From: Syntrophaceae bacterium
Lineage (GTDB): Bacteria > Desulfobacterota > Syntrophia > Syntrophales > Smithellaceae
Assembly: GCA_018436925.1 (NCBI GenBank)
Contig: JAHDKI010000006.1
Coordinates: 68,692 to 132,691, forward strand
Length of the DNA: 64,000 bases
Direction of reading: 5' to 3'
Shown: positions 2,372 to 52,198 of the stretch, piece after piece
Layout of the letters: the number at the start of each line of letters is the position of its first letter
How positions within the stretch are numbered: the stretch's first letter is position 1
Translations under genes and position numbers: made by a program
The notes under the pieces: model-generated
The model's database searches: none
Told to the model about the DNA's origin: nothing
What the model saw: the letters and a program-made list of their open reading frames with translations, nothing else

Positions 2372-3249
2372 ATATGTGCTTGGATTGCATTCCCTGTTTT
2401 GTCCGCCAGGCTGTGGACGCGGTCAGACTGTCGGGCGCCCCGGAAGAGGAACAAAATCGTTTGATGCAGCGGATTCTTCAATGGCTCGCGGATATAGACT
2501 TACGTCTCCCTCCGCCTGCGGCTTCACAGCGGATTCATCGGCGTTTGCGCGCCCTCCTGCCTACGGACGATCCTTATTTTGCGTCAAAGAAACACCACAA
2601 CGACCTGGCGGCGCGACTGGTTCCCTCCATTCGCCGCCGGATCGCCGCATCGCACGATCCGCTCGCAATGGCCGTCCGTTACGCGATTACGGGCAACATC
2701 ATCGATCTGGGTGCCAAAAATAATGTAGGATTCGGCGAAATTTACTCGGAGTTGCAAAGCGCCCCCATGCAACCCGTCTTCGGAGACCTGAATGTATTCA
2801 AAGAAAAACTTCTTCGGGCCCAGACCATTCTTTACCTGGCCGACAATGCAGGCGAAATTTTTTTCGACCGTCTGCTCATCGAGCAGCTGGTCCACGCAAA
2901 GGTAACGCTTGCCGTGCGCGGCGCGCCGGTCCTCAATGACGCGACCCGTTCCGACGCCCGACAGGCTCGCATCGATGAAATCGCGCAAATCATCGACAAC
3001 GGTTCGGACGCGCCCGGCACACTGCTCGACGACTGCACGGAGGATTTCCGTCGCCGATTCGACGAAGCGGATTTGATCATCGCCAAAGGCCAGGGAAATT
3101 ATGAAAGCCTTTCTGAAGCGCATCGGGAGGTCTTCTTTTTGTTTCGGACGAAATGTCCGGTCATCAGTCGTCATTCCGGATTCTCCATGGGCACATACGT
3201 GGCGGCCAACCGGCAATCCGAACCGCACACTCCGGGAGGCGGCGCATGA
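2368..3249 (+). CDS. DUF89 (ARMT1-like damage-control phosphatase) family protein
   Basis: Shows CLDCIPCFVRQ at the N-terminus, then LADNAGEIFFD and IAKGQGNYESL, which match DUF89 signatures. ATGA overlap with the upstream gene. Confidence 0.8.
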   Translation: MNMCLDCIPCFVRQAVDAVRLSGAPEEEQNRLMQRILQWLADIDLRLPPPAASQRIHRRLRALLPTDDPYFASKKHHNDLAARLVPSIRRRIAASHDPLAMAVRYAITGNIIDLGAKNNVGFGEIYSELQSAPMQPVFGDLNVFKEKLLRAQTILYLADNAGEIFFDRLLIEQLVHAKVTLAVRGAPVLNDATRSDARQARIDEIAQIIDNGSDAPGTLLDDCTEDFRRRFDEADLIIAKGQGNYESLSEAHREVFFLFRTKCPVISRHSGFSMGTYVAANRQSEPHTPGGGA

Positions 3250-4082
3250 GACTCTCCGTGGCATCGGGCAAAGGGGGAACCGGCAAGACAACGCTCAGCG
3301 CTAATCTGGCCAGGATTGCCCAACATACCGTCGTTTTGGCGGATTGCGATGTGGAAGAACCGAACGCGCATTTGTTTTTGAAAACATCCGATATCGAAGA
3401 AAAAGTCGTGAGTCTCCCGATTCCAAAGGTAGATGAAGCGCTTTGCGACGGCTGCGGCCTGTGCTCGAAAATCTGCCAGTTTTCCGCTATCGTCACGTTC
3501 GGCACGGCGCCTTTGGTGTTCCCTGAAATGTGTCACGGTTGCGGAGGCTGTGCGTTGGTGTGTCCGCCTAAGGCGATCACAGAGCATCCGCGCCGTATCG
3601 GGGTTGTCGAAATCTCCCAAGCGGAATCCATCACTCTGATAACCGGCAGGCTCGATGTGGGCGTGGCCCAGGCGCCGCCGCTCATCCGCGCGGTCAAGGA
3701 GGCCGTGCCTCCAAAAACCGACGCCATTTTTGACGCGCCGCCCGGCACCTCGTGCCCGGTTATTGCCGCCGTTCGGGACACGGATATGGTGCTTCTCGTA
3801 ACCGAACCCACGCCATTTGGCCTTCACGATCTTACGCTTGCCGTGGATATGGTGCGCGACTTACAATTGCCTTTTGGCGTCGTTGTAAACCGGATGGGGT
3901 CGGGCGATCGTCGCATTCAGGCGTTTTGTGAAAAACAACAGATTCCCATCTTGCTTGAAATTCCGGACGACCGGCGAATTGCAGAAGCTTACTCGCGAGG
4001 GATTCTGATGGTCGATGCCCTGCCCGAATATCGATCGCTTTTTGAGGATCTATGGAAAACCATCCGACAAAGTTTGAATTAA
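3246..4082 (+). CDS. MinD/ParA-class P-loop ATPase with inserted 2x[4Fe-4S] ferredoxin domain
   Basis: Deviant Walker A SGKGGTGKTT. Also CDVEEPN, two CxxCxxCxxxC motifs (CDGCGLCSKIC, CHGCGGCALVC) and PPGTSCP. The ATG at 3246 overlaps the DUF89 stop (ATGA). Confidence 0.85.
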   Translation: MRLSVASGKGGTGKTTLSANLARIAQHTVVLADCDVEEPNAHLFLKTSDIEEKVVSLPIPKVDEALCDGCGLCSKICQFSAIVTFGTAPLVFPEMCHGCGGCALVCPPKAITEHPRRIGVVEISQAESITLITGRLDVGVAQAPPLIRAVKEAVPPKTDAIFDAPPGTSCPVIAAVRDTDMVLLVTEPTPFGLHDLTLAVDMVRDLQLPFGVVVNRMGSGDRRIQAFCEKQQIPILLEIPDDRRIAEAYSRGILMVDALPEYRSLFEDLWKTIRQSLN

Positions 4083-4095
4083 GGAGAACAAAGAT

Positions 4096-4350
4096 ATGCC
4101 GACATATGAATATCAATGCAGCCGATGCGGTTTGCATTTTGAAAAACAGCAGCCAATGAACGATGAGCCGCTTTCTGTGTGTCCCGATTGCGAAGGAAGC
4201 GTAAAAAGGCTGGTGAGCGGAGGGACCGGTTTTATGATGAAGGGCAAAACCGGACGCTTGCAAGCCTCCGGAGGCTGTTCGCTTGAAGAAGCGGGAAGAA
4301 CCTGCTGCGGCGCCGCAAGCCGGTGCGGCAATTCAAACTGCGGGGACTAG
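4096..4350 (+). CDS. FmdB-family zinc-ribbon protein (CxxC_CxxC_SSSS type)
   Basis: MPTYEYQCSRCG...CPDCEG is the canonical FmdB N-terminus. The C-terminus is Cys-rich. AAGGAG RBS. Confidence 0.75.
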   Translation: MPTYEYQCSRCGLHFEKQQPMNDEPLSVCPDCEGSVKRLVSGGTGFMMKGKTGRLQASGGCSLEEAGRTCCGAASRCGNSNCGD

Positions 4351-4353
4351 ATC

Positions 4354-5307
4354 ATGTCTGCAAAACCTTTTCAGTATCTTTACGGCCCCGTGCCGTCCAG
4401 GCGACTGGGACGTTCACTGGGCATCGACCTGGTCCCTTATAAAACCTGCACGTATGACTGTATTTACTGCCAGTTGGGCAAGACGACGGAAAAAACGATT
4501 GAGCGGCGCGATTACGTTCCCGTAAGCGGCGTTCTTGACGAGCTTGCGGAAAAACTCGCTTCCGGAGCACCTTGCGACTATATCACGCTTGCCGGCTCAG
4601 GCGAACCGACGCTGCACGCCTGCCTGGAAGAACTGATCCGTAAAATCAAGGAAATGACCGGCATCCCCATCGCGGTCATCACCAACGGATCGCTTTTGTA
4701 TCTTCCGGAAGTCCGCGAATCGCTGATGCGCGCCGACCTCGTCGTTCCCTCGCTCGACGCGGGAGACGCGGTTCTGTTCGAATACGTCAACCGGCCGCAT
4801 CCGGACATTATTTTTGAACGGATGGCCGAAGGCCTGGTCGAATTCGGCAGACGCTATGAAGGGTGTTTATGGCTGGAAGTGTTGCTCGTTTCCGGCGTCA
4901 CCGGCCTGGCCTCGGAAGCGAAAAAAATCGCCGCCTGGGCGAAGAAAATCAACGCAGGGAAAATTCAGTTGGGCACGGTCAACCGGCCGGCTTGTGAGGA
5001 TTTTGCCTGTGCGGTGGATGCCAGGCAAATGAAAACACTCGTGGGCCTCTTCCCAGGCGAGGTGGACATGCTAGAAAACGACCGCCCCGCGGATCTGGCT
5101 CCGACGGGGCCGACCGATACGACAGACTCAGACATTCTGAGCCTTTTGGCCAGACGCCCCTGCACCCTTGAAGGCCTCTGCTCCGGGCTGGGCTTGAAGC
5201 CTCAAGATGCGGTCAAACGCATTGAAAGACTGATCGCATTGGGACGGGCTTCAACAAAACGCAATGGGCGTACTGTCTTTTACATCCAGGCGGAGCGTGG
5301 AGTATGA
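4354..5307 (+). CDS. radical SAM protein (COG0731-like) with C-terminal helix-turn-helix-like extension
   Basis: YGPVPSRRLGRSLGIDL followed by the CTYDCIYCQ (CxxxCxxC) radical SAM cluster motif. Also GSGEPTL. Confidence 0.85.
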   Translation: MSAKPFQYLYGPVPSRRLGRSLGIDLVPYKTCTYDCIYCQLGKTTEKTIERRDYVPVSGVLDELAEKLASGAPCDYITLAGSGEPTLHACLEELIRKIKEMTGIPIAVITNGSLLYLPEVRESLMRADLVVPSLDAGDAVLFEYVNRPHPDIIFERMAEGLVEFGRRYEGCLWLEVLLVSGVTGLASEAKKIAAWAKKINAGKIQLGTVNRPACEDFACAVDARQMKTLVGLFPGEVDMLENDRPADLAPTGPTDTTDSDILSLLARRPCTLEGLCSGLGLKPQDAVKRIERLIALGRASTKRNGRTVFYIQAERGV

Positions 5308-6161
5308 AGGAATGGGTCATCATCAGCGGCAAGGGAGGAACGGGTAAAACCAGCATCGCGGCTTCATTGGCCTTTCTGGCCGGCCGCCCGGTGATTTGCG
5401 ATTGCGATGTGGACGCGGCGGATTTGCATCTGGTTTTAGAGCCTGATGTTCTTGAAGAACATGAGTTTCGAAGCGGGCATGAAGCGGTGATCCGACCCGA
5501 CGATTGCAACGGCTGCGGCATCTGTCAGGACTTGTGCCGTTTTAAAGCGATTCATGAAGAGGGTCGGATTTTTTCAGTTGATCCGGTTTCGTGCGAGGGT
5601 TGCGGCGTGTGCGTGCACTTCTGTCCTCAAAAAGCGATTGACTTTCCGGAGAGTCTTTGTGGTAAGTGGTTCATTTCGGAAACAAGGCTCGGTCCGATGG
5701 TTCATGCGCGACTCGGCGTGGCGGCTGAAAACTCGGGCAAGCTGGTTTCCACCGTGCGCCAGGAAGCGCGCAAACTCGCTGAACAAAACGGCCATGATCT
5801 CATCTTGGTGGACGGCCCCCCGGGCATCGGCTGTCCGGTCATCGCTTCGGTCACGGGCGCGTCACAGGTTTTAGTGATTACAGAACCGACTGTATCGGGG
5901 AAGCACGATCTGGAAAGGGTTCTGGGACTGACAAGACATTTTCAGATTCCGGCGGCCGTCTGCGTCAACAAATGGGACATCAATCCCGAAATGACCGAAG
6001 CCATCGAGCAAGCGGCAAAAGAGGCCGGCGCCGCCGTCGCGGGACGTATTCGCTACGATAGAGATGTAACCCGGGCGCAAATTGAGAAAAAAACGGTCCT
6101 GGAAACAAACGCAGCATGCGGTTTGGATATTCTCAGCATATGGAAGCATTTGAATGCTTGA
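5304..6161 (+). CDS. MinD/ParA-class P-loop ATPase with inserted 2x[4Fe-4S] ferredoxin domain (paralog of 3246-4082)
   Basis: Shows SGKGGTGKTS, CDCDVDAAD, CNGCGICQDLC, CEGCGVCVHFC and PPGIGCP. ATGA overlap with the radical SAM stop. Confidence 0.85.
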   Translation: MKEWVIISGKGGTGKTSIAASLAFLAGRPVICDCDVDAADLHLVLEPDVLEEHEFRSGHEAVIRPDDCNGCGICQDLCRFKAIHEEGRIFSVDPVSCEGCGVCVHFCPQKAIDFPESLCGKWFISETRLGPMVHARLGVAAENSGKLVSTVRQEARKLAEQNGHDLILVDGPPGIGCPVIASVTGASQVLVITEPTVSGKHDLERVLGLTRHFQIPAAVCVNKWDINPEMTEAIEQAAKEAGAAVAGRIRYDRDVTRAQIEKKTVLETNAACGLDILSIWKHLNA

Positions 6162-6190
6162 TGACATAAAAAGAGGAGGCGTGTAACATC

Positions 6191-7084
6191 GTGGAAAGCA
6201 AAAAATCATGCAGTTCGTGTTCGGATTCAAGCTGTTCGGCAAAAAAACAGGGGGCAAATGAGACGAAGGAAGAGTATGCGGATCGTCAACGTCTTGCAGC
6301 AAGACTTTGCCGCATTCAAAATAAGATTGTGGTGCTTTCCGGCAAGGGCGGTGTTGGCAAGAGCACCGTGGCGGTGAATCTGGCCACGGCGCTGGCCTTA
6401 AACGGTCTGCGCGTGGGGCTTCTGGATGTCGATATTCACGGCCCCAGCGTGCCCACCATGCTTGGGCTGGAGGGCGCCTCGCTCAAGGGAAACCCCGGAG
6501 AGCTCTTCCCCGTTGAATTCGGCGGGCTGAAAGTCATGTCTTTAGGGTTTCTCCTGCAAAACCCGGATGATGCGGTCCTCTGGCGCGGCCCGATGAAGAT
6601 GGGCGTCATCAAGCAGTTTCTCACGGACGTCAACTGGGGGGACCTGGATTATCTGATTGTCGATGCGCCTCCGGGGACCGGCGATGAGCCACTGTCCTTA
6701 TGCCAGTTGATCCAGCCGCTTGACGGCGCGGTCATTGTGACCACTCCCCAGAAAGTCGCCGCCGTCGACGTGCGCAAGTCCATCAGTTTCTGCAGAAGGC
6801 TGGAGGTGCCGGTTCTGGGTATCGTGGAGAATATGAGCGGCTTTGTCTGTCCCAAATGCGGCGAGCTCACGCAAATCCTTCCGGAAGGCGGCGGACGGCA
6901 GATCGCAACGGACATGAACGTAACCTTCCTGGGTGCGATTCCGATGGATCCCGGCATTGCCCAGTCCGGGGATTCCGGCAAGGTTTTCATTTATCATTCG
7001 TCGGAAACGCCGACCGGAAAGATTCTGCAAAGTATCATCGATCAAATTACGGAGCCGGACAAAACAAAAAATATCAACGCATAA
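6191..7084 (+). CDS. Mrp/NBP35/ApbC-family Fe-S cluster carrier ATPase with Cys-rich N-terminus
   Basis: Shows SGKGGVGKSTV, LLDVDIHGPS, DYLIVDAPPGTGDE and the FVCPKCG (CPxC) motif. The N-terminal stretch is CSSCSDSSCS. GTG start with AGGAGG upstream. Confidence 0.9.
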   Translation: MESKKSCSSCSDSSCSAKKQGANETKEEYADRQRLAARLCRIQNKIVVLSGKGGVGKSTVAVNLATALALNGLRVGLLDVDIHGPSVPTMLGLEGASLKGNPGELFPVEFGGLKVMSLGFLLQNPDDAVLWRGPMKMGVIKQFLTDVNWGDLDYLIVDAPPGTGDEPLSLCQLIQPLDGAVIVTTPQKVAAVDVRKSISFCRRLEVPVLGIVENMSGFVCPKCGELTQILPEGGGRQIATDMNVTFLGAIPMDPGIAQSGDSGKVFIYHSSETPTGKILQSIIDQITEPDKTKNINA

Positions 7085-7094
7085 GGAGCATCCT

Positions 7095-7433
7095 ATGAAA
7101 ATCGCCATTCCGTTAGCCGAAGGCAGGTTAGCGATGCATTTCGGACATTGCGCAAGTTTCGCGCTGGTGGATATCGATCCAGAGACGAAGAAAATTATCA
7201 AAACGGAAGAACTGGCCGCGCCGCCCCATCAACCGGGGCTTTTGCCGCCTTGGCTTGCCGAGCGCGGCGCGACGATGATTATCGCCGGCGGTATGGGACA
7301 GCGAGCTCAGCAGCTTTTCGCCCAGCAGGGCATCCAGGTCGTGGTGGGGGCGCCCGCCGAAACCCCTGAAAAAATCATCACAGACTATTTTGCCGGTTCA
7401 CTGAAGGTGGGTGACAACATCTGCGACCATTAA
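7095..7433 (+). CDS. NifB/NifX-family cofactor-binding domain protein
   Basis: Shows MKIAIPLAEGRLAMHFGHC..F...D and IIAGGMGQRA..LF...GI. AAGGAG RBS before the ATG at 7095. Confidence 0.8.
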   Translation: MKIAIPLAEGRLAMHFGHCASFALVDIDPETKKIIKTEELAAPPHQPGLLPPWLAERGATMIIAGGMGQRAQQLFAQQGIQVVVGAPAETPEKIITDYFAGSLKVGDNICDH

Positions 7434-39494: not shown

Positions 39495-39944
39495 ATGAAA
39501 ATGGCTGAGGAACACAAGACGGATGAAGAAATCAAAAAAGAAATGATCGATCTTCTGATGGAAAAGATTACGGGAGGTCTGTCCGAAAAGGTGGTCGATT
39601 ACGGCACCCACCCGCGCAATTACGGCGCTATTGAAAAACCCGACGGCCACGCCAAGATCAAAGGCCCCTGCGGCGATACGATGGAAATGTATCTCAAAAT
39701 TCAAAACGATAAAGTTGTCGATATTGCCTATACGACGGACGGCTGCATGACCTCTCATGCGGCCGGAACCGCCGCCACGGTGATGGCCAAAGGCAAGCCT
39801 GTGCGGGAGTGCCTGAGGATCAATCAAAGCTCCATTTTAGAGCACCTGGGGGGCATGCCCGAAGATTCGCAGCACTGCGCGTTACTTGCCGCCAACACGT
39901 TTCACAAAGCGCTGCGGGACTATGCCGTCGGAAAGAAGAAATAA
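39495..39944 (+). CDS. IscU/NifU N-terminal-domain-like Fe-S scaffold protein
   Basis: Shows HPRNYG, GPCGDTM, TDGCMTS and SQHCALLA, the three conserved Cys of the U-type scaffold. The ATG at 39501 has better SD spacing. Confidence 0.8.
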   Translation: MKMAEEHKTDEEIKKEMIDLLMEKITGGLSEKVVDYGTHPRNYGAIEKPDGHAKIKGPCGDTMEMYLKIQNDKVVDIAYTTDGCMTSHAAGTAATVMAKGKPVRECLRINQSSILEHLGGMPEDSQHCALLAANTFHKALRDYAVGKKK

Positions 39945-39945
39945 G

Positions 39946-40698
39946 ATGCCGACGAAAAACGCGCCGTCAAACGATGCCCCGCTGATCACCGTCATTTGCG
40001 ACAACTATACGACACGCGATGACCTGGAGGCGTCGTGGGGCTTTGCCTGTCTGATCGCACTGGGGGATAAAAACATTCTTTTCGACACGGGCAGCGACGG
40101 ACCGGTCTTGCGGCATAACATGGAAATACTGGATATCGATCCGGGCTCGATCGACCTGCTGATGATTTCGCATCAGCACTGGGATCATGTAGGCGGCATC
40201 TACGAAATATCAAGCGCCAGGCGCGATCTGCCAGTGTATGTCCCGCATTCTTTTTCCGTCCATTTTCAAGACGACATGAAACGATACGGGGCGAACATCA
40301 TTGATATCGACAGGGCGCACGAGATTTTACCGGGGCTTTTCACCACCGGGGAGATGCAAGGCCTGATGCCGGAACAGTCGGCCCTTTTGCGGACGGACGC
40401 GGGAACGATCGTCATGACCGGCTGCGCGCATCCGGGCATTGTCCGGATCGTGGAAGCCGCCAAAAAAATCCTTCCCGAAGACGAGATCGCGCTTGTGATG
40501 GGCGGGTTTCATCTGCTTGACGACAGCGACCGTAAGATTCTGGAGATCATCGGGCAGTTTAAATCCCTGGGAGTTCGCTATGCCGCCGCCTCTCATTGCA
40601 GTGGAGAAATAGCCAGAGAACTTTTCGCCCGCGAATACAAAGACCATTTCATCGCCCTGGGCGCGGGAACCGCGATTTCGCGCGCCGATCTGAAATAG
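39946..40698 (+). CDS. MBL-fold metallo-hydrolase (COG1237-like), paralog of 9030-9986
   Basis: Shows ISHQHWDHVGG, TGCAHPG and GGFHL. Confidence 0.8.
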   Translation: MPTKNAPSNDAPLITVICDNYTTRDDLEASWGFACLIALGDKNILFDTGSDGPVLRHNMEILDIDPGSIDLLMISHQHWDHVGGIYEISSARRDLPVYVPHSFSVHFQDDMKRYGANIIDIDRAHEILPGLFTTGEMQGLMPEQSALLRTDAGTIVMTGCAHPGIVRIVEAAKKILPEDEIALVMGGFHLLDDSDRKILEIIGQFKSLGVRYAAASHCSGEIARELFAREYKDHFIALGAGTAISRADLK

Positions 40699-41318: not shown

Positions 41319-41504
41319 TCACGTAAATCCACCTCCGAATGAGCCGGCGGTCGAAGATGACTTGGCGGCAAAGACAGAGAGTTGTTTTTCCGTGTTTCTC
41401 CCGCCGCAATGCGGGCAGTTTTGTGTCTGGTCGGCCTGGGAAATAGAAATCAGACATTCAAAAAGCTTATTGCAGTCTTTGCAGCGATATTCATAAAAAG
41501 GCAT
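41319..41504 (-). CDS. FmdB-family zinc-ribbon protein
   Basis: MPFYEYRCKDCN...CPHCGG. AAGGAAA SD upstream. The track ORF's upstream extension is not supported. Confidence 0.7.
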   Translation of the reverse strand: MPFYEYRCKDCNKLFECLISISQADQTQNCPHCGGRNTEKQLSVFAAKSSSTAGSFGGGFT

Positions 41505-41669
41505 AAGATAATTTTCCTTTCCAAATAGCTTTGTTTTTAAGTTAAGCCCTACGGAACTCTCCGTCAAGAAACAAAGCGCTGCATGTAATTTGTCCGTGCT
41601 CTTTTTTTCGCCGGCCTGGCGTGACAACAGACTTAATTAATGCTCTGGCGCCGACCAGCATGATTTCGC

Positions 41670-42197
41670 TTAAGGTTTGTAACCGTCTATCCAGCCGTAC
41701 TCGGGCAGCGCGTGAAAACAGACGGGAATTGCGTTTAACCAATGTCCGTCCGACCCAATCTCCCATTTGGTGTATCGATCCATCGGCGGCGCCGTTTTAT
41801 CGATCCTGTATCCCAACGGGTGGTATCCGATATCGATTTCCTTGGCTTTTTTCCGAATCGAAAATTCCTTATCCAGAATCGCGACGATTTCTTCTTTTGT
41901 TTGAATGGCTGATGTCGATCGAACAACCTCACCTTCCCTGAAATAAATAATAAACGGAAGCCTTTTAAACGTTGCACATTCCGGCAGTCCCTTGATCCAA
42001 CGCGCCACTTGCGCATCGAAGTCCATTGTCCGAAAAGCGACAAACGGATATAGCGGCTCCAGTGCGCGCATACTTTCATACACCGGAATGCACATCGGCC
42101 CAATTCGACCGCAGCAAATCATGACAAAGGGTTTATTTTTAATCAGCGCTTTCGCCTCGCCCTGTGTGATCAACTCCTGGACTTCTGTTTCAAGCAT
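41670..42197 (-). CDS. thioredoxin-fold-like protein with extra C-terminal domain (hypothetical)
   Basis: Shows KPFVMICCGRIGPMCIPV and LPFIIYFREGE, which resemble a Trx fold. Strong GGAGGAGG SD. The function is unknown. Confidence 0.5.
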   Translation of the reverse strand: MLETEVQELITQGEAKALIKNKPFVMICCGRIGPMCIPVYESMRALEPLYPFVAFRTMDFDAQVARWIKGLPECATFKRLPFIIYFREGEVVRSTSAIQTKEEIVAILDKEFSIRKKAKEIDIGYHPLGYRIDKTAPPMDRYTKWEIGSDGHWLNAIPVCFHALPEYGWIDGYKP

Positions 42198-42221
42198 GAA
42201 TCCCCTCCTCCGGTTGCTTAA

Positions 42222-42758
42222 TCAGACATTTCTCCAATTTCCCCGGCTCTTTGCTCCACACCCGCCCCCGCCTCGACCCAACCCGATCCCCGAACCGCAT
42301 CCGCGCCTACCGCCCTTACCCCGGCGGTGATACGTTGAACGGGCAAAAAGGTTCAGCGTTCGATCCACAACGCCGGACGTCTGCGCCGGATGCGAACCGG
42401 AAGCGCGAGTGGCAAATGGCTCATGAAGCAAAGATTCAGCACTCGAAGAAACGCGTTCTTGCGAGGTCTTGTGTTTAAAAGAGAAAACCTCGCTTGACCG
42501 ATCTCTTGGTTCAGCACAAATGGCGCCATTCGGGCATTCATTTACACAAGCCCAACAACCGGCACAAAGTCCGGCGTCGATTTTTGCCGTTTCCTCGATA
42601 GTTATCGCCCCGACAGGACAGACATCAACACAAAGCCCGCACCCGGTGCATTTGCTTTCATCAACTTTAACAAGGACGGATCTCCCTTTCCGCATTTTCG
42701 TTTTATCCTTTCCTTTCAGAATGAGCGTTTCATCTCCTCCCGGCTCTACGATAATCAC
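42222..42758 (-). CDS. 2x[4Fe-4S] ferredoxin domain protein with Gly/Arg-rich C-terminal tail
   Basis: Shows CTGCGLCVDVCP and CAGCWACVNECP. The tail is RRGKGGRRGCGSGIGLGRGGGGCG. The GTG start overlaps the def stop by 1 nt. An alternative ATG lies at 42695. Confidence 0.7.
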   Translation of the reverse strand: MIIVEPGGDETLILKGKDKTKMRKGRSVLVKVDESKCTGCGLCVDVCPVGAITIEETAKIDAGLCAGCWACVNECPNGAICAEPRDRSSEVFSFKHKTSQERVSSSAESLLHEPFATRASGSHPAQTSGVVDRTLNLFARSTYHRRGKGGRRGCGSGIGLGRGGGGCGAKSRGNWRNV

Positions 42759-43258
42759 TAAAGATCGTTTTTGTTGCCGCTAACGGGCTCCAACGCATCG
42801 TCCGTTACCGGTTCACCGTAATCACAAATCAAAACGCCATTCAGGTGATCCATTTCGTGTTGTACAACGCGCGCCCACAGGCCGGTCAGATCATATTGCA
42901 TTCTGCGCCCCCGGACATCGAGCGCAGCAACATAAATCCGGTCGTGTCTTGTGACGTTGACATGCATGCCCGGCAGGCTCAGGCACCCTTCGACCATCTG
43001 CGTTTCTTTTCCGGTTTCGACTATGACCGGATTGACGAGCGCGAGCGTTTCGTTTTGAATGCGGCAAACAAATACTTGTCTGGCAAGGCCCGCCTGGGGA
43101 GCGGCCAGACCAATGCCTTCGCTTCGTCTCATGAGAGCGAACATCGCTTCGATCATATCTCGCAGCTCGGCGTCGAACTGTTCCACGGGTTTGCAGATTT
43201 GCCGCAAAACCTCCGCCGGATAGACTTGCAAATCCAGTGTCGCATCGGAGGTCTTCAT
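42758..43258 (-). CDS. def: peptide deformylase
   Basis: GIGLAAPQ, EGCLSLPG and HEMDHL motifs. Confidence 0.9.
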   Translation of the reverse strand: MKTSDATLDLQVYPAEVLRQICKPVEQFDAELRDMIEAMFALMRRSEGIGLAAPQAGLARQVFVCRIQNETLALVNPVIVETGKETQMVEGCLSLPGMHVNVTRHDRIYVAALDVRGRRMQYDLTGLWARVVQHEMDHLNGVLICDYGEPVTDDALEPVSGNKNDL

Positions 43259-43430
43259 GATGGTTTCCCCCTTTGTTTATGGCGCCTGGCCTTTCCTGCC
43301 GTGCGGGTTGGAACAAGGGGGCATGCCTTCCGGTCGACTGGCTGCACTCCCCCTTTTTTAGAAAATGTGCCTGACCTTTAAGTCTTTGCACGCCGGTGAA
43401 GTTTCAAACTCGCCAGAAAGCGAGCATTGA

Positions 43431-43793
43431 CTATTTCTCTGTTTTTTCCTTTTCCAAATCGGCCAGACGCTTTTGAATGCCGCCCAGCGCGTCTTCAAAA
43501 TACTTCGCCTGACCGCGAAGCGCGTCGATCTCCTGCTCGCGTGTCGGCGCCTCCCAGTTAGGCGCAACCGGTGGGGCATAAGCGTAACCGGCGTAAGGCG
43601 CCGCGAAGCGTCCGCCCCCGGGGCCGCGTCCTCCCCGGAATCCCAGTCCCAGGCCTCGGCCGAATCCAAATCCTCTGCCAAAGCCGCCGACCGGATTGAC
43701 AAATCCGGGCGTTGCATATCCCGCGCAATAACCCGCGGCTCGTCCTGTCATCGGTCCCAGTCCCGCTGGACCTGTTCGATCTCCTCTTGGCAT
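43431..43793 (-). CDS. DUF5320-like protein (Gly/Arg-rich N-half, coiled-coil C-half)
   Basis: MPRGDRTGPAGLGPMTGRAAGYCAGY is the family-typical N-terminus. It is followed by GFGRGFGFGRGLGLGFRGGRGPGGGR and then EIDALRGQAKYFEDALGGIQKRLADLE. Confidence 0.75.
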   Translation of the reverse strand: MPRGDRTGPAGLGPMTGRAAGYCAGYATPGFVNPVGGFGRGFGFGRGLGLGFRGGRGPGGGRFAAPYAGYAYAPPVAPNWEAPTREQEIDALRGQAKYFEDALGGIQKRLADLEKEKTEK

Positions 43794-43812
43794 ATGAACC
43801 TCCTTTTGTGTT

Positions 43813-44214
43813 TTATGGTCTTGATGCTCTGCCGCCGCGGAAACGCCGCCTGCGGCCCCGTCCTTTGCATCCCGGCATCCCGAAGGTATGGCTGATCGGC
43901 ATCCTCCTTAAGTAAGCCTCCAGCACCTGATGCGCATTGCCGGAGACAAATCCGGTGACTTCAATGCCGGACATTTCCAGCATCCTTGCAAAGTCCGTCG
44001 ATATCGCCCCGCAGATGACAACCTCAACCCCCCACTCGGATAATCTTGATGCGCGCGAATAGGGCAGTTCCGGCCCCAGGTTTTCCGTGCGGCTTGATGA
44101 TATTTCCCCGTCTTCAATATCCGCGATTAAAACGGTTCGAGCCGAATCGAAAACGGGTGCAATCAGGTCGCCCCAAACGGCCAGGGCAATGATTCGACGG
44201 TTTCCAGAACTCAT
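43813..44214 (-). CDS. NifB/NifX-family cofactor-binding domain protein with Arg/Gly-rich C-terminal tail
   Basis: Shows IALAVWGDLIAPVFDSA and GVEVVICGAIS. The tail is MPGCKGRGRRRRFRGGR. Paralog of the CDS at 1-392. Confidence 0.75.
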   Translation of the reverse strand: MSSGNRRIIALAVWGDLIAPVFDSARTVLIADIEDGEISSSRTENLGPELPYSRASRLSEWGVEVVICGAISTDFARMLEMSGIEVTGFVSGNAHQVLEAYLRRMPISHTFGMPGCKGRGRRRRFRGGRASRP

Positions 44215-44226
44215 GCTTATTAATTT

Positions 44227-44242
44227 AGCATTTTGCGTGCCA
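44227..44242 (-). promoter_or_regulatory. sigma-54 (-24/-12) promoter
   Basis: The minus strand reads TGGCAC-GCAAA-ATGCT (consensus TGGCAC-N5-TTGCW). It lies between the sigma-54 activator gene and the NifX-like gene. Confidence 0.6.
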
Positions 44243-44385
44243 GAAAAGATCTGCTTGCCGGGATGATAAATATTACAGATAGTACGAATGGTTACATGAT
44301 TGATGGGCGTAAAGTCCGTGTTTCTGATAATCCATAGTGTCGCATGCGTGCTACTCTATTGGTTAATTAAGTCGCAATAACGCGA

Positions 44386-45771
44386 CTATTTCATCACCTT
44401 TTTATCAGATCGTCCGTCAATGCGCGGTAACTCGATACCCAAACCTCTGACTTTCCGAAAAAACGTACTCTTGTGCATGCCCAATTCACGAGCGGCTGCC
44501 AGGCGGTTGCCCCGGTTTCGTTCCAGCGCGTCGAGAATCGCCCGCGCCTCCATTGATTTTATCGCCTCAGCCGGAACAAGCTGCGTTTTCTTTTCGCCAT
44601 TGCTTCCTTGCATCGCCTCGGGTAGGCAATACGGCGTAATGTGCCCTTCGCGACACAAAACAAACGCGTGTTCGATGGCGTTTTCCAGCTCCCGGATATT
44701 GCCCGGAAAGGAGTAGGCCAGAAGCAAAGCCAGCGCCTCAGGTGTCGGCCCCTTGAGATTCTTTTGACGCAGCACATTGTTTTTTCGGATGAAATGATCA
44801 ACCAGAAGCGGAATATCTTCCCTGCGTTCGCGAAGCGGCGGCAAAAAAAGATTCACGACGTTGATTCGGTAATATAAATCCTCGCGAAATGATCCGGCCG
44901 AAACCAGATCATGGAGATTTTTGTTGGTTGCGGCAATAAAGCGAACATCGGTTTTCTCTTCGCGGGTTGCGCCCAGCGGATGATAGACCTGATCCTGAAG
45001 GACGCGCAGCAGGCGGACCTGAAAGGCCGGGCTCACTTCGCCGATTTCGTCGAGAAACAGGCTGCCGTTTTTGGCCGATGCAAAAAGCCCCGCTTTGTCG
45101 CGCTTCGCGTCGGTGAAGGCGCCTTTTTTGTAACCGAAGAGTTCCGACTCCAGAAGCGTGTCGGGAAGCGCCGCGCAGTTGACCGCCACAAAGGAGTGCC
45201 TGCGTCGCGGGCTTAAATCATGGATGGCCCTGGCCAGAAGCTCTTTGCCCGTTCCCGTCTCGCCCGAGATCAACACCGACGAACCGCTTTCGGCAATCTG
45301 CGGCAGAATGCTGAATATTTTAAGCATCGCGGGGCTTGCGCTGATCATATCCCCCGCCTGGTGGCGCGCTTGAATCTCTTTTCGCAATTCTTCGACCAGG
45401 CTCATATCGCGGAAGGTCTCCACGCCGCCCAGAATCCGGCCTTCTTCATCGTGAAGGACCGATGTGCAGACCACCACGGGAATCCGCCGCCCTTCGTCGG
45501 TGACGATATACGTGGAGGTATCGAGCAGACTTTTTTTAAGCGCCATGGTTTTGCGTAGTGCGCAGTCTTCGCCGCACATGTTGGAGCGAAACACATCCCA
45601 ACAATGCCTGCCTATGGCTTCGCGCCGAGGCACACCCGTAATGACTTCCGCGGCGCGGTTAAACGACGTGATGCGCCACGCGTCATCGACGGTAAAAACG
45701 CCTTCGGACAGGCTGTCCAAAATGACATCCGTGACGCGACCGGAGGAAATATGACTGTTGCCTTTTGCCAT
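44386..45771 (-). CDS. sigma-54-dependent transcriptional activator (PAS - AAA+ - Fis HTH)
   Basis: PAS domain at the N-terminus, GETGTGKE Walker A, the GAFTDA (GAFTGA-like) loop and a C-terminal HTH ([15 protein letters not shown]). Confidence 0.9.
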
Positions 45772-46651: not shown

Positions 46652-47533
46652 TTACTTCTTCGACGGAATCACCGTTGGATAGTAAATTGGCTCTCCATAT
46701 TCTTTCACGCCGAATTCGGCAATGATCTTCTGCCCCTCTTCGCCGGTCAGGAACTCGTAGAATTTCTCCGCCAGACCCTGATTGTACTTCAGGTGAGGAT
46801 GCTTCTCGGTATTGACCAGGCACATTTCATATTCGTTGGGGGGGCCTTTGACCAGAAGCTTCAAGCCTTTCGTCTTGGCTTTGTGCAGCGCCCACGTGGA
46901 GGAATCCAGCATATGATACTGTCCGTTTTTGTCTGCATCCAGCAATGACGCGAGCATAAACTTTTTGCTGACCTGGTACCAAGGCTGCCCTTCAGGATTC
47001 ACGCCCAGATCCTGCCAGGTCTTGCGTTCCAGAATATCCATACCGCCGCCGTCGCCCCGCGAAAGGTATGGCGCTTTGGCCTCGTGAATTCGCTTCTGAA
47101 CGTCTTTAATACTGGTCAGTCCTTCAATCTTCGCTGGATCTTCGGCCGGACCGACCACTACCGTAAAATTATGCATGAGGTCGGTCCGCCGGGCCGCATA
47201 GCCTTCCTTTGCAAAACGCGCCGTAGCGGCTCTTTCATGCCCCATCGTAATGTGGGTAAGTCCATGCCTGCCGAGATCCAGACCGGGGCCAGTCGGCGTT
47301 TTGATACACCGGATGACGCCGCCGTGCTTTTTCTGGAAGGCTTTGGCCAATTCATCCACCAGGCCGAGTTCATAAGGACTACCGGTAGCAATCACAATCT
47401 GCTTGTATTCCGCCGGGACGACATTGGTCGAATTGACCGCACACCCGGCGGCAAGCAAACACCACACCGTTAACACAACCGCTGCAATCAGCGTGCGACT
47501 CCGCTTGACACTGCTCAATTTGAACATAAACAA
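46652..47533 (-). CDS. TupA-family (PBP_like_2) periplasmic oxyanion-binding lipoprotein, divergent anion-binding motif
   Basis: Lipobox LLAAGC. Shows LSRGDGGGM and VNTEKHPHLKYNQGLAEKFYEFLTGEEGQKII, resembling TupA. The N-terminal motif reads ATGSPYE rather than the Thr/Ser-rich TupA motif. Confidence 0.65.
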   Translation of the reverse strand: MFMFKLSSVKRSRTLIAAVVLTVWCLLAAGCAVNSTNVVPAEYKQIVIATGSPYELGLVDELAKAFQKKHGGVIRCIKTPTGPGLDLGRHGLTHITMGHERAATARFAKEGYAARRTDLMHNFTVVVGPAEDPAKIEGLTSIKDVQKRIHEAKAPYLSRGDGGGMDILERKTWQDLGVNPEGQPWYQVSKKFMLASLLDADKNGQYHMLDSSTWALHKAKTKGLKLLVKGPPNEYEMCLVNTEKHPHLKYNQGLAEKFYEFLTGEEGQKIIAEFGVKEYGEPIYYPTVIPSKK

Positions 47534-47561
47534 CCTCTCTTCAATTGAAATTTATTCTTTT

Positions 47562-48563
47562 TTACTGAACATATTTCTGAAGCGCTGTGGGCAGTTTGTT
47601 TTTGTCGCTCGCCACAGCCGGACGGACGGCATCCTGGCCTGTCGCTTCCAACGCGGCAAGGCCCTTTTCGCTCAAAAGAAATTCCACGAAACTTTGCGCC
47701 TTTTTCTGATCGGGATAATTTTTGGGAATCGTCACGGCATAAAGAATCGGTTCGCCTGTAAGGTCTATGGTCTCTCCCGGTTTCTTTCCTTTGATGCTGA
47801 CTTTGGCATGCGCGTAAAATGCTTCGTGTTTGGCGCTGGAAAGATTGATCTGTTCCGGCAGCTGCAGGAATTTAAGGCCATGCTGTCGTGCCACTGAACT
47901 ATACTCAAAGGCATAGTCCAAATCGCCCGACTGTAAAAGCGCAATCAGGTCTACGGATTTAGCTCTCATGGTGTCGCCCTTGGCGCCATAAAGCTTTTTG
48001 TAAATGCCGGAAACACCGTAATGCTTTTCAGCCAACTGCCAGACCATCAGTGTGCGATAACCACAAGGATCCTGGTCGGGATCACTGCGGCCATACATCA
48101 CACCCTCTTTGGGAAGAATCTCATGCCAGTTGTCGGCATTAACCTCTTTGGCATACTTCGATTTTTCCGTATAGCACAACACCATCTGATTGGAAGCGAA
48201 CACAATATACCAATCGGCGTAATCTGGAAACATCAGCTTCGGGACAATCTTGTAATCCGCCGAGCCGATAACGCCGCCCTCGCGCTTGAGCTCCGTGACT
48301 TTGCGTATGGTCGTCGCGCTGCCGCCCCCTTCAATAAGCACGTCCACTTTCGGATAGTGCTTGTTGTATTCCTTACTCACTGCCTTAAACGGCACAGTAA
48401 GGCTGCCGGCGATGAACACCGGAAGCTTGCCTTCAATGTCGGCAGCCATCGCCGGTTGACTCATAGCCGGAACTCCCGCCAGAATCCAGCCGATCAGGAC
48501 AATCCATAAAAACTGGTTTTTGCATACTGCTTTCATACTTGACCTCCTTTTAATAAAGTTCAT
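47562..48563 (-). CDS. wtpA: WtpA-type tungstate/molybdate-binding periplasmic protein
   Basis: LPVFIAGSLTVPFKAVSKEYNKHYPKVDVLIEGGGSATTIRKVTEL...GSADY closely follows my recollection of archaeal-type WtpA. Signal peptide present. Confidence 0.75.
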   Translation of the reverse strand: MNFIKRRSSMKAVCKNQFLWIVLIGWILAGVPAMSQPAMAADIEGKLPVFIAGSLTVPFKAVSKEYNKHYPKVDVLIEGGGSATTIRKVTELKREGGVIGSADYKIVPKLMFPDYADWYIVFASNQMVLCYTEKSKYAKEVNADNWHEILPKEGVMYGRSDPDQDPCGYRTLMVWQLAEKHYGVSGIYKKLYGAKGDTMRAKSVDLIALLQSGDLDYAFEYSSVARQHGLKFLQLPEQINLSSAKHEAFYAHAKVSIKGKKPGETIDLTGEPILYAVTIPKNYPDQKKAQSFVEFLLSEKGLAALEATGQDAVRPAVASDKNKLPTALQKYVQ

Positions 48564-49612
48564 TCCTGAAAAACATGAACCGACGACGCATCGAAACAGA
48601 CGCTGACGCGCATGCCGGTTTTCAATTCCATTTCCCGATACGTATGACGCGTGACCAGCGCCGTGATGACTGAAGGCACGGAGACATCAATATACAGCGT
48701 CGAACCCCGGTCGGCGATCCGCACAATTTCGCCGGTGAACGTGTTGGTCCTGCTCGGAATAGCGTCCCGGGACACAAGCATGACATCTTCGGGCCGGATA
48801 ACGGCCCGGTTGCCGGGGCCATTTCCGCTATCCACGGAAAAATGAAGGTCGCCGGATTGAAAATCGCACTGTCCGATGCCAGTATTGGAAAGCTCGCCAA
48901 TAAAGAGATTACGAGACATGGCAAACTCTGCGACGAATTCGGAGTTGGGCTTGCGGAAGATGTCTTCAGGTGTGCCGACCTGCTTGACCTCCCCTTCGCC
49001 GATAACGGCAATACGATCGCCCAACGCAACGGCTTCTTCAAAATTGTGCGTTACATGGAGCGTGGTCACATCAAGCTCACGGTGTAAGTGATGAAGCTCC
49101 GCTTCGATTTCCTCACGAGTTTTCGGATCCAGAGACGACAGCGGTTCGTCCAGAAGCAGCACATCGGGTGACACGCACAGCGCCCGCGCCAGGGCGACCT
49201 TCTGCTGTTCGCCGCCGGACAAGGTCTGAGGATCGCGATCCAGAAGCGACCGGATACTGAATAATTCCACAACCCGGGAAAACGCTTCACTGCACTCTTT
49301 TTCATCGATCTTGCGCATGCGCAGTCCAAAGAGAATATTGTCCCGAACGCACAGGTGCGGAAAAAGCGCATGGTCCTGATAAACAATGCTCACATGCCGC
49401 CGTTCGGGGCTGAGCCTTGTGACGTCGCGGCCGCGAAGCCGGATTTCTCCGCGCTCCGGCGAATAAAGTCCGGCGATGGATTCCAGAAGCACCGTTTTCC
49501 CGGCGCCGGAGGGACCGACCACCACCATATATTCGCCGTCTTTGACATCAAGGCTTGCGTCTTTGAGCGTGAAATCGCCCAGTTCAACGTAGAGGTTGCG
49601 GATGGAAATCAT
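48560..49612 (-). CDS. ABC transporter ATP-binding protein with C-terminal TOBE-like domain (WtpC/ModC-like)
   Basis: Shows GPSGAGKT, LSGGEQQK and LLLDEP. The C-terminus has a beta-rich TOBE region. ATGA overlaps at both ends. Confidence 0.9.
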   Translation of the reverse strand: MISIRNLYVELGDFTLKDASLDVKDGEYMVVVGPSGAGKTVLLESIAGLYSPERGEIRLRGRDVTRLSPERRHVSIVYQDHALFPHLCVRDNILFGLRMRKIDEKECSEAFSRVVELFSIRSLLDRDPQTLSGGEQQKVALARALCVSPDVLLLDEPLSSLDPKTREEIEAELHHLHRELDVTTLHVTHNFEEAVALGDRIAVIGEGEVKQVGTPEDIFRKPNSEFVAEFAMSRNLFIGELSNTGIGQCDFQSGDLHFSVDSGNGPGNRAVIRPEDVMLVSRDAIPSRTNTFTGEIVRIADRGSTLYIDVSVPSVITALVTRHTYREMELKTGMRVSVCFDASSVHVFQE

Positions 49613-50475
49613 CTTTCCCTCCGGTACAACAAGAGGCGCAGGACCACGAAAACGAAAAGAGAAATAAGGATGAGGATCACGGCAATCGGCCGGGCGTGGT
49701 CGAGCCCATACGTTTCAAACTTCTCATAAACCAGCACGGGCGCAATCATGGGATGATACGCGATGATGATGACCGCGCCGAATTCGCTCATGCCCCGCGC
49801 CCACATCAGAATGCAACCAGCCGTGATGCTGCGTCTGGCCAGGGGGAAGGAAATACGCGCAAACGTCCGCCAAGGCGTGGCGCCTAATGTTCTGGCTACT
49901 TTTTCCAGACGCGGATCGACTTTTTGAAATCCTTCCTTGGCCGAATCGATCAAAAAGGGAACGCTGACAAACAACATGGCGATCACGATGCCCGCCAGAG
50001 AATCCAGAAAACGGACGCCGATACCGTCGAAGGCTTGTCCGACGAAATAATGGCGACCGAATACAAATAGAAGCGCGATACCTGCTGCGGAATGGGGAAT
50101 CACCAGCGGCAGATCGATGATGCCTTCGATGAGTCTTTTGCCGGGAAACTGCGTTTTTGCCAGAAGATAGGCCAACGGCACACCCAATAGAAACCCGATG
50201 ACCGTGGCCAGAAATGCCGCGTAAAGGGTCAGGATAATGGATGATGTAATTTCTGAATCCCGTAAAGAATCGATTAATATGGCCGGGCTGGAGGCGAAAA
50301 TCATTTTGGCGACGGGAACGATGATAAAAAGAAGGATGAGGCCGCCAAGAATCAGAAACAAACCCCTGAACCACACATTGGTCAATAATCTTAAGCACCT
50401 GATACCATTGGCAATTAACTTATCACTAGACAGAAACGTCGCCCTTGAGATTGGTCCATGTTTTTTCGGTATCAT
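49609..50475 (-). CDS. ABC transporter permease (WtpB/ModB-like)
   Basis: Six TM helices with an EAA-like loop (DPRLEKVARTLGATPWRTF). The exact start is uncertain because the SD is weak. Confidence 0.85.
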   Translation of the reverse strand: MIPKKHGPISRATFLSSDKLIANGIRCLRLLTNVWFRGLFLILGGLILLFIIVPVAKMIFASSPAILIDSLRDSEITSSIILTLYAAFLATVIGFLLGVPLAYLLAKTQFPGKRLIEGIIDLPLVIPHSAAGIALLFVFGRHYFVGQAFDGIGVRFLDSLAGIVIAMLFVSVPFLIDSAKEGFQKVDPRLEKVARTLGATPWRTFARISFPLARRSITAGCILMWARGMSEFGAVIIIAYHPMIAPVLVYEKFETYGLDHARPIAVILILISLFVFVVLRLLLYRRER

Positions 50476-50983: not shown

Positions 50984-51274
50984 ACCTTCCGACCTTAGAT
51001 GCTTTCAAGCATGCACTTTTCGCCTTACTTCTTTGCGTAAAATTGTTTTGAAAATCCTCTGCACGATAAATAGCACTCCTTATTGCGTTATTGTGAACAA
51101 AATTAATCCGTTTTTCACACCGGAGCATTGCCGAATACCTTCAATATACAAGTATTTTGATGTTCTAATATTCAACTGGCTCTTTGTTAGACGGATATGT
51201 TATATTTGCCAAAATTAATGTGGCTTAGTATTCGTATATAAAACGAATCAATTGAAGATAAAAGGAGGATGCGC

Positions 51275-52198
51275 ATGAAAAGAAACATTTCACAGAAACT
51301 CCTTGCGGCAGTTTTTTTGACCCTTTTAATGCCGGCACTGGTTTTTGCCCGCGACATCCCCCCTGTTGTTTCAACGGATTGGCTTTCGGCTAATCTCAAA
51401 AACCCCAAACTGATCGTTTTGGATGTCCGAAGCGTTGAAGATTACCGGGAAGGCCATATCCCAGGAGCGGTTAATGCGTTTTATCGCGCATGGGCTTATA
51501 TGAAAGACGGGCTTTTTTCTTCCCTGCCCGATAAAGACGACATCGACGACACCATCGGGTATTTCGGCATCCATTTCGATAACTGGGTCGTCGTGACCGG
51601 CTGCATGGATACCCCCAGGCTCAGTTACCAAAGCGCCCGTGTGGCTTGCACGCTTCAGTATGCCGGCATCGCAAACGTCGCGCTGCTCGACGGCGGCATG
51701 AACAAATGGGTCGCGGAGAAAAAGCCTCTATCCACAAAAATCGAACGCCGCAAGGCCAAACCCTTCCTGGGAAAATATGTCGGCGAAAAATTCGCCGACG
51801 CCGACTATATAAAAAATAACATGGGCAAACTGATTCTTCTGGATGTCCGGGAAAGAGAGTTTTTCACCGGCGAAAAGAAAATGGATTGCGTGCCTCTGCG
51901 TGGACACATCCCCGGCGCGTTTAATATGCCGACGTCCTGCGCCTTCAATGAAAACAAAACGTTCAAAACCAAAGAAGAGCTGGCCCAGATTGTCGAAGCG
52001 GCCGCCGGAAAAGACCGCAATGCGGCAATCGTCACCTACTGTGATATCGGACAATGCTGCCCGATCTGGTCGTATCTGATGACCCAACTGCTGGGTTACA
52101 CCAATGTCCGCCTCTATGACGGCGGTATGCAGGAATGGATGCAATCGCCCGATGCGCCGGTTACAATGGATAATAATACGCCCAAAAAGAACCAATAA
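51275..52198 (+). CDS. secreted tandem-rhodanese sulfurtransferase
   Basis: Signal peptide (LLMPALVFA-RD). Two rhodanese modules (YREGHIPGAVN and RGHIPGAFN). Active-site loop YCDIGQCC. The ATG at 51275 has proper SD spacing. Confidence 0.8.
   Translation: MKRNISQKLLAAVFLTLLMPALVFARDIPPVVSTDWLSANLKNPKLIVLDVRSVEDYREGHIPGAVNAFYRAWAYMKDGLFSSLPDKDDIDDTIGYFGIHFDNWVVVTGCMDTPRLSYQSARVACTLQYAGIANVALLDGGMNKWVAEKKPLSTKIERRKAKPFLGKYVGEKFADADYIKNNMGKLILLDVREREFFTGEKKMDCVPLRGHIPGAFNMPTSCAFNENKTFKTKEELAQIVEAAAGKDRNAAIVTYCDIGQCCPIWSYLMTQLLGYTNVRLYDGGMQEWMQSPDAPVTMDNNTPKKNQ

Follow-up and report, generated by a model that had tools for sequence, protein, structure and literature searches.

The gene cluster considered here occupies positions 41319-45771 of a 64-kb stretch of DNA from a Syntrophaceae bacterium (Smithellaceae; contig JAHDKI010000006.1), hereafter the window, in which gene calls were checked with Pfam. 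Its nearest described counterparts are the orp/OrpR system of Desulfovibrio vulgaris and the IssA protein of Pyrococcus furiosus. OrpR (DVU2106) is a sigma-54 activator with PAS, AAA+ and helix-turn-helix (HTH) domains, the PAS domain of which carries a redox-sensitive [4Fe-4S] cluster; it requires the cysteines C52, C61 and C65, has a conserved Asp or Glu at position 54, binds the palindrome GGGCGYRTTTTGCGCCC ahead of two orp operons, and is active only at low redox potential (PMC8359166). Integration host factor (IHF) assists this regulation in D. vulgaris (PMC3897727), and the loop motif of DVU2106 is GAFTDA (PMC4641369). The Orp proteins include the MinD-like Orp3 and Orp4, which carry ferredoxin motifs, Orp5, the orange protein (ORP) Orp8 with its Mo-Cu-S cluster, and Orp9, which is MrpORP (PMC6345978). 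IssA is a thioferrate iron-sulfur storage protein with a tail of 70 amino acids (aa; 7 cationic, 14 aromatic, 15 Gly, 11 Pro and 1 Cys; isoelectric point (pI) 10.7) that is proposed to bind anionic thioferrate, and an uncharacterised “IssX” clade has been mentioned alongside it (PMC5524996).

Very probably, the cluster at 41319-45771 and a second locus at 1-7433 are two parts of one orp/OrpR system of the kind known from D. vulgaris, split 41 kb apart and equipped with an OrpR-type activator; for its products we infer a role with Fe-S clusters or other metal sulfides. In most Desulfobacterota, a single operon that follows the activator contains the genes of both loci, and for this reason the loci are regarded as complementary halves. 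An original prediction, made from the sequence of the window, had described two paralogous or complementary modules of one system. Their membership of one system is borne out by the shared operons, and “complementary” is the apt term; “paralogous” applies to the head gene only, that is, to the gene for a NifX-like protein with a cationic tail (tailed NifX), which is present at both loci. The seven genes of the cluster are all on the minus strand and, judged by Pfam, lie where the original prediction had them, with two start codons corrected:

44386-45771, minus strand: OrpR-like sigma-54 enhancer-binding protein, 461 aa; PAS, Sigma54_activat and HTH_8 (Pfam, E 8e-67)
43813-44214, minus strand: tailed NifX-like protein, paralogue B, 133 aa; PF02579, E 4e-10; tail GMPGCKGRGRRRRFRGGRASRP
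43431-43793, minus strand: DUF5320 protein, 120 aa; PF17253 over its full length, 84.7 bits against a cut-off of 27
42758-43258, minus strand: peptide deformylase (def); Pfam, with all three metal-site motifs read in the translation
42222-42695 (more likely start), minus strand: 2x[4Fe-4S] ferredoxin with a linker and the Gly/Arg tail HRRGKGGRRGCGSGIGLGRGGGGCGAKSRGNWRNV, 157 aa; Pfam
41670-42197, minus strand: thioredoxin-fold protein with an extra module of ~55 aa, 175 aa; AlphaFold model, Foldseek
41319-41504, minus strand: FmdB-type zinc ribbon, 61 aa; Pfam and NCBIfam

The open reading frame of the ferredoxin had been listed to 42758, and its start is more likely at 42695, because relatives begin at the corresponding Met. 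The FmdB frame as listed, to 41627, includes an upstream extension, and the 61-aa product starts at 41504.

Gene neighbourhood across genomes

Relatives of the tailed NifX gene were collected by a scan of one genome per species, which found more than 566, and the best 80 loci, almost all from Desulfobacterota, were used (individual loci are cited by L numbers). The usual order is activator, tailed NifX, (DUF5320), two MinD-ferredoxin ATPases, two NifX-like genes, (Mrp) and (FmdB). The activator gene is directly upstream of tailed NifX in 49 of 72 loci, and DUF5320 is encoded within 1.5 kb of it in 33 of 72. Downstream of tailed NifX, a MinD-ferredoxin gene is found in 42 of 61 loci, FmdB in 14/61 and def in 4/61. 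In the Desulfohalobiaceae locus L034, tailed NifX is the first gene after the activator; a search seeded with this homologue returned no named Desulfovibrio protein among its matches.

The reverse count, made on 42 metagenome loci of at least 3 kb seeded with DUF5320, gives the following: 35 carry a NifX-like gene of any kind, 27 the Gly/Arg zinc ribbon (usually just before DUF5320), 20 a MinD-ferredoxin gene, 16 tailed NifX, 15 the activator, 14 DUF89 and one def. Two copies of DUF5320 are present in 17 of them. The co-occurrence of tailed NifX with DUF5320 that was suspected from the window alone is thus seen in other genomes from both directions. DUF5320, the Gly/Arg zinc ribbon, FmdB and DUF89 are recurrent members of orp clusters, and def and the thioredoxin-like gene are not. 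A fuller order also recurs (L105, L110, L140, L147 and L163), running from the activator through tailed NifX, an ORP-type NifX, DUF89, DUF5320, the Gly/Arg zinc ribbon, a second DUF5320 and FmdB to a NifX-like gene.

The activator

The domain order of the 44386-45771 product is an N-terminal PAS domain (PAS_9), a central AAA+ domain (Sigma54_activat) and a C-terminal Fis-type HTH (HTH_8). Its translated PAS domain contains C57, C66 and C70 in the arrangement Cx8Cx3C, with D59 at +2 from the first Cys, and the loop reads GAFTDA. The Cys triad is shared by 59 of the 65 activators that adjoin tailed NifX genes, and the loop in relatives is GAFTDA (19) or GAFTNA (28). The product is therefore best described as an apparent OrpR-type enhancer-binding protein, with a presumed orthology to DVU2106 that draws on motifs and gene order.

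Promoter, activator sites and transcription unit

The activator and tailed NifX genes are separated by 171 nucleotides (nt). This gap, the end of the activator gene and the region after DUF5320 hold the following elements:

44370-44387, minus strand: putative upstream activating site 1, the perfect palindrome AGTCGC-GTTATT-GCGACT (AGTCGCGTTATTGCGACT), overlapping the activator stop codon
44339-44354, minus strand: putative upstream activating site 2, GTAGCA-CGCA-TGCGAC (GTAGCACGCATGCGAC), with one mismatch, 32 nt from site 1
44264-44282, minus strand: conserved AT-rich block CTATCTGTAATATTTATCA, between activating sites and promoter, where D. vulgaris has IHF sites
44227-44242, minus strand: sigma-54 promoter TGGCAC-GCAAA-ATGCT (TGGCACGCAAAATGCT), with 10 of 11 consensus positions, preceding the tailed NifX gene
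43408-43425, minus strand: hairpin directly after the DUF5320 stop codon, found by folding, with an energy that is not significant (z -1.4)

Sites 1 and 2 are the only matches to GTCGC-N6-GCGAC in the 64 kb, and 44227-44242 is the sole site in the window that has at most one mismatch and keeps GG-N10-GC; no further activator sites or sigma-54 promoters were found elsewhere in the window, for example at a tungstate transporter operon described below. The centres of the two sites lie ~130 and ~160 nt ahead of the predicted transcription start, as would be expected of such sites. Of 75 related loci, 50 have a palindrome of this kind in the same zone, compared with none of 75 control regions and one of 75 shuffles, and the tandem arrangement is found in relatives too. 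The half-site, (A)GTCGCA, is similar to the D. vulgaris GGGCGCA, and the spacer is longer by one base. At 76 of 83 loci there is a promoter with at least 9 of the 11 consensus positions, and its distance from a conserved Trp codon hardly varies; the TGTAAT core of the AT-rich block is at the same place in L001, L012, L013, L016 and L023. The original prediction is thus supported in that the gene for a dedicated sigma-54 activator lies ahead of the tailed NifX gene.

The same prediction took this locus alone to be under the activator, and this part is probably wrong: in L001 and L008, the orthologue of the 1-392 gene, which heads the other locus, has a perfect TGGCACTTTACTTGCT promoter together with the same palindromes, so that both halves carry these elements in the two relatives. 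One activator therefore probably governs both halves. In the present window, the region ahead of the 1-392 gene falls before position 1.

The GC of the promoter -12 element lies 13 nt before the ATG of tailed NifX (44212-44242), and there is no Shine-Dalgarno sequence, so that the transcript is predicted to be leaderless, or nearly so, in the Smithella clade. Relatives of this clade have the same spacing from -12 to ATG, keep the ATG and are likewise without a Shine-Dalgarno sequence (L001, L005, L010, L012 and L013); in relatives from Desulfobacterales, the start is seven codons later and AAGGAGG is present. The DUF5320 gene follows tailed NifX after a gap of 19 nt and has a strong Shine-Dalgarno sequence. 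It is separated from def by 172 nt, within which there is a second hairpin, with G5/C5, besides the one at the stop codon. Stronger hairpins are found in this gap in L001, L007 and L010, and a simple terminator scan gave nothing in it on the minus strand; by these folding predictions the hairpins may act as a leaky terminator. Only tailed NifX and DUF5320 can, from the sequence, be safely assigned to the sigma-54 unit, and because of the 172-nt gap with its hairpins, def, the ferredoxin, the thioredoxin-like gene and FmdB are no more than possible members of it. The synteny of these four genes is confined to the Smithella clade.

The other half at 1-7433

According to Pfam, the 1-7433 locus encodes a tailed NifX, PdaD, a Gly/Arg zinc ribbon, a NifX-like protein, TrmO, DUF89, two MinD-ferredoxin ATPases, FmdB, a radical SAM protein, Mrp and a further NifX-like protein. 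Its main features are:

1-392, plus strand: tailed NifX-like protein, paralogue A, head gene of this locus; N-terminus outside the window, ending SLPGCRGKADGCYRKQSRIRGQAPGARCRWRS
1085-1306, plus strand: Gly/Arg-rich zinc ribbon with double CxxC, 73 aa
1521-1883, plus strand: homologue of the orange protein (ORP/Orp8); best solved-structure match 2WFB, ORP of D. gigas, E 6.9e-20
3246-4082 and 5304-6161, plus strand: MinD/ParA-type ATPases with 2x[4Fe-4S] inserts (Orp3/Orp4-like); CbiA/ParA and Fer4, 36% mutual identity
4096-4350, plus strand: FmdB gene, between the two MinD-type ATPases
4354-5307, plus strand: radical SAM gene, between the two MinD-type ATPases
6191-7084 and 7095-7433, plus strand: split MrpORP (Orp9), as Mrp/NBP35 ATPase and NifX-like domain, respectively; NCBIfam MrpORP

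The last pair is read as one split gene because the two products match adjacent parts of the MrpORP profile (384.8 bits on positions 2-256 and 132.5 bits on 265-365), each below the whole-protein cut-off of 450 on its own. The 7095-7433 gene encodes HFGHC and C-terminal CDH motifs, as described for the fused MrpORP of D. vulgaris. Between paralogue A and the zinc ribbon lies a gene for a pyruvoyl-dependent arginine decarboxylase (406-999), which is also present in the Smithella relative L008 (13609-14172). The FmdB proteins of the two loci, which the original prediction paired as counterparts, share only the generic N-terminus of 16 residues (E 0.002); there is no similarity beyond the generic domain, and a specific paralogy of the two was rejected.

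Tailed NifX proteins and DUF5320

Paralogue B is predicted to have a NifX/MTH1175-type fold, with residues 6-111 modelled at a pLDDT (predicted local distance difference test score) above 90, followed by MPGC and a cationic tail of 22 residues with a pI of 12 that is modelled as disordered, at low confidence. In Foldseek, it matches PH0822, MJ0327, TM1816, NafY, MTH1175 and ORP. Paralogues A and B share 40% identity over an aligned 103 aa that ends with [LM]PGC (E 2e-18), compared with ~24% between either of them and the remaining NifX-like proteins in the window, so that their pairwise alignment marks them as specific paralogues. The tail too is shared, as had been noticed from the sequence: its common part is [LM]PGC[RK]G, followed by a cationic stretch. 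A and B represent two orthologous groups that coexist in relatives, with identities of 48% for A-A, 67% for B-B and ~39% for A-B comparisons.

Conservation across 27 homologues extends to MPG[CF] and to a cationic tail, which reads RRRRFRGGR here. Over the 80 loci, MPGC is nearly invariant and the tails are variable; those of Desulfobulbaceae are Cys-rich instead (MPGCGKNICCRGKIRRGR). DUF5320 itself consists of an N-terminal MPRGDRTGPxGxGPMTGRxxGYC motif, a middle part rich in Gly, Arg, aromatic residues and Pro, and a C-terminal helical segment, and its residues 1-84 include 8 cationic, 12 aromatic, 24 Gly, 11 Pro and 1 Cys (pI 10.5). The N-terminal motif of DUF5320 (MPRGDGTGPQGQGP..GRGQGGC) is found inside the NifX tail in at least 15 loci (L015-L017, L019, L021-L024, L029, L033, L036, L048, L058, L063 and L068), and in P0051 and P0060, precomputed annotation places both PF17253 and PF02579 on one protein. 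A single gene of L035 (1-834) combines tailed NifX with the Gly/Arg zinc ribbon. The zinc ribbon of the window (1085-1306) has no detectable similarity to DUF5320 (E 6.7), and sequence homology of the two was rejected; the sequences cannot be aligned, and it is gene neighbourhood and gene fusions that link the two. As parts of the system, DUF5320 and the cationic tails are undescribed.

Accompanying and flanking genes

The three most Gly/Arg-rich stretches of 20 residues among the ~66 genes of the window are all encoded in three genes within 2 kb of this cluster, which is more than chance would give. The Gly/Arg tail type of the ferredoxin is kept in L001, L003, L006, L007 and L010-L013, where, as at 42222-42695, a linker motif GGLL..x..FF is conserved before the tail.

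The product of 41670-42197 has no Pfam match. Its AlphaFold model has a thioredoxin fold in residues 1-112 (Foldseek TM-score ~0.8 on the target). This part belongs to a widespread family of ~116 aa, named thioredoxin by the sources, with the invariant motifs MICCGRMGPMCIPVY and LPEC and four invariant cysteines (CC-x6-C ... C). The module of ~55 aa that is fused to it (GYHPxGxRIDKT...PVCFHxLP) is encoded by a separate gene in some relatives (L001 9914-10252, L011 and L013).

Directly upstream of the activator gene is an operon for a tungstate ABC transporter (46652-50475, minus strand), which encodes a permease, a TOBE-domain ATPase, WtpA (372 bits, cut-off 355) and a binding protein of TupA-like type, the 93 bits of which fall short of the cut-off. 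Transporters of a similar kind lie close to the locus in L001 and L003. The flanks at 39495-40698 and 51269-52198 encode a NifU_N/IscU-like scaffold, a protein with a metallo-beta-lactamase fold and a double rhodanese, and the genes for NifU_N and the beta-lactamase-fold protein are syntenic in L001 too. An Rfam scan of the whole window gave no match.

Proposed mode of action

By analogy with OrpR, the PAS domain of the activator would hold a redox-sensitive [4Fe-4S] cluster on C57, C66 and C70, with D59, and the protein would bind the two palindromes within 44339-44387. At low redox potential, it would drive open complex formation at the sigma-54 promoter 44227-44242, giving a transcript of tailed NifX and DUF5320, and, judged from relatives, it would switch on the 1-7433 half through the promoter and palindromes of paralogue A. 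The Orp products would handle metal-sulfide clusters: the NifX-like domain, with the invariant Cys of MPGC, would hold an anionic Fe-S or Mo/W-S species, to which the Gly/Arg/aromatic region of DUF5320 and the cationic tails would bind by electrostatic attraction, much as is proposed for the IssA tail and thioferrate.

This suggests a more specific possibility, which we put forward tentatively and consider doubtful as it stands, that of an IssA-like store in two parts. The NifX domain would nucleate an anionic metal sulfide (thioferrate, or thiomolybdate or thiotungstate), and the Gly/Arg segments of DUF5320, the tailed ferredoxin and the zinc ribbon would wrap the polymer, forming a redox-gated store or transfer depot under OrpR control that feeds the Fe-S and Mo-S proteins of the Orp set. 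If true, this would explain what DUF5320 does, and likewise the as yet unexplained opening gene of orp operons across Desulfobacterota. The likeness to IssA offers a concrete, testable idea of what both of them may do.

Alternative explanations

Several observations weigh against a single split orp/OrpR system as described here. The promoter of the other half lies outside the window, and for DVU2106 and DVU2107, orthology is presumed from motifs and gene order. The palindrome and the D. vulgaris site are not the same in sequence, and their spacing differs by one base; the IHF consensus WATCAANNNNTTR is absent between the sites and the promoter at up to one mismatch, and the promoter is so near the ATG that translation is predicted to be leaderless, which is unusual. 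The NifX tail has only 22 residues and is not aromatic, unlike that of IssA. Metal binding and expression in this organism are predictions from the genes, and even in D. vulgaris it is not settled what the Orp complex does in the cell.

The model of the original prediction, in which two paralogous modules of one system coexist and only this one has a dedicated activator, draws on the two orthologous groups of tailed NifX proteins and on the presence of FmdB genes and Fe-S proteins at both loci. We consider it distinctly unlikely, as the contents beyond the head gene are not repeated (the activator and DUF5320 occur only here, and ORP, the MinD-ferredoxin ATPases and Mrp only at 1-7433), all these genes form one operon elsewhere, the other head gene in L001 and L008 has the same type of control region, and the FmdB pair has only the generic ribbon in common. 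A module for a nitrogenase-type cofactor, in which a NifA-like activator would control NifX-like carriers of FeMo-cofactor, is suggested by the PF02579 matches and by a partial match of the AAA+ core to NCBIfam nifA (336 bits against a cut-off of 529). Such a module is extremely improbable and was rejected: the activator has a PAS domain with the OrpR Cys triad and not the GAF domain of NifA, there are no nif structural or assembly genes among the annotated neighbours, and the best matches of the NifX-like proteins are to ORP, MTH1175 and proteins of the PH0822 type.

Two further proposals concern what the tails bind. The first is a cargo-specific version of the split orp/OrpR system, in which tailed NifX and DUF5320 would be a tungsten and molybdenum trafficking unit that receives thiotungstate or thiomolybdate from WtpA/TupA uptake for the W/Mo enzymes of syntrophs. 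The tungstate transporter next to the activator and its counterparts near the locus in L001 and L003 point this way, as do the Mo-Cu-S cluster bound by ORP (PMC6345978) and a weak resemblance of the 4354-5307 radical SAM protein to a tungsten-cofactor maturase. That resemblance amounts to 40 bits, however, far under the cut-off of 380; the transporter is without a palindrome or sigma-54 promoter of the orp type, the adjacency is seen in three close relatives only, and MrpORP and Orp3/Orp4 are Fe-S proteins, which together make this version rather unlikely. It is also unlikely, and a little more so, that the Gly/Arg tails are RGG-type segments for nucleic acid binding or condensate formation, or localisation signals, with no binding of metal sulfide. 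Their composition is RGG-like, the tail is modelled as disordered, and Orp proteins have been linked to cell morphology, MrpORP being polar (PMC6345978, PMC8359166), but metal chemistry is suggested by several cysteines, namely the invariant one of MPGC, that of the DUF5320 motif and those of many tails. In addition, the tails sit on cofactor-binding folds, and a cationic tail on this fold has IssA as its one precedent (PMC5524996).

Comparison with known systems

The split orp/OrpR system agrees with what is already known in the type of activator, the Cys triad, the type of promoter and the core Orp proteins, all of which match the D. vulgaris model. What is new from the comparison is the conserved motif of the activator site and the fixed promoter geometry, seen in more than 70 Desulfobacterota loci, and the fusions that tie tailed NifX to DUF5320 and to the zinc ribbon.

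With NifX, NafY and the C-terminal domain of NifB, the tailed NifX protein shares its fold (Foldseek finds NafY, 1P90, and NifX, 9IAN, at E 1e-4), and this family also carries anionic metal-sulfur clusters. The window protein differs from it in belonging to another subfamily, with MPGC and a cationic tail, in having no nif context, and in adjoining an activator that is not NifA.

With IssA it shares a globular domain of NifX type (IPR003731) followed by a disordered, cationic, Gly-rich tail that contains Cys. Residues 1-84 of DUF5320 have nearly the same composition as the IssA tail, a likeness of composition only, with IssA taken from its published description, and the fused NifX-DUF5320 proteins, which occur in the genomes of relatives only, are similar to IssA in architecture. 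Unlike IssA, in which ~70 residues of cationic, aromatic and Gly-rich tail are on the same polypeptide, the window has the long Gly/Arg/aromatic segment on a separate protein, DUF5320, and a NifX tail with one aromatic residue. Regulation in the window would be by an OrpR-type activator and sigma-54 rather than by a sulfur response, and thioferrate or nanoparticles would be conjectural for the window system.

The likeness to the D. vulgaris orp system extends from the activator, with its PAS-AAA+-HTH order, Cx8Cx3C triad, acidic residue at +2 and GAFTDA loop, to the control region, where palindromic sites with a GNCGCA half-site (predicted ones in the window) lie upstream of a sigma-54 promoter. 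Both systems have a NifX-like gene beside the activator gene, both include ORP or a homologue of it, a pair of MinD-ferredoxin ATPases and MrpORP, and in both, though for the window only probably, one activator serves two transcription units. For tailed NifX and Orp7 (DVU2107), the first gene after orpR, the agreement is one of position only. Unlike those of D. vulgaris, the two units of the window do not diverge from the activator but lie 41 kb apart. Further differences are that MrpORP is encoded by two genes, the palindrome has another sequence and spacing, the transcript is predicted to be leaderless, and the head gene is duplicated. To the D. vulgaris cluster as published, the window adds DUF5320, the Gly/Arg zinc ribbon, FmdB, DUF89, the radical SAM protein, TrmO, PdaD and the Gly/Arg-tailed ferredoxin.

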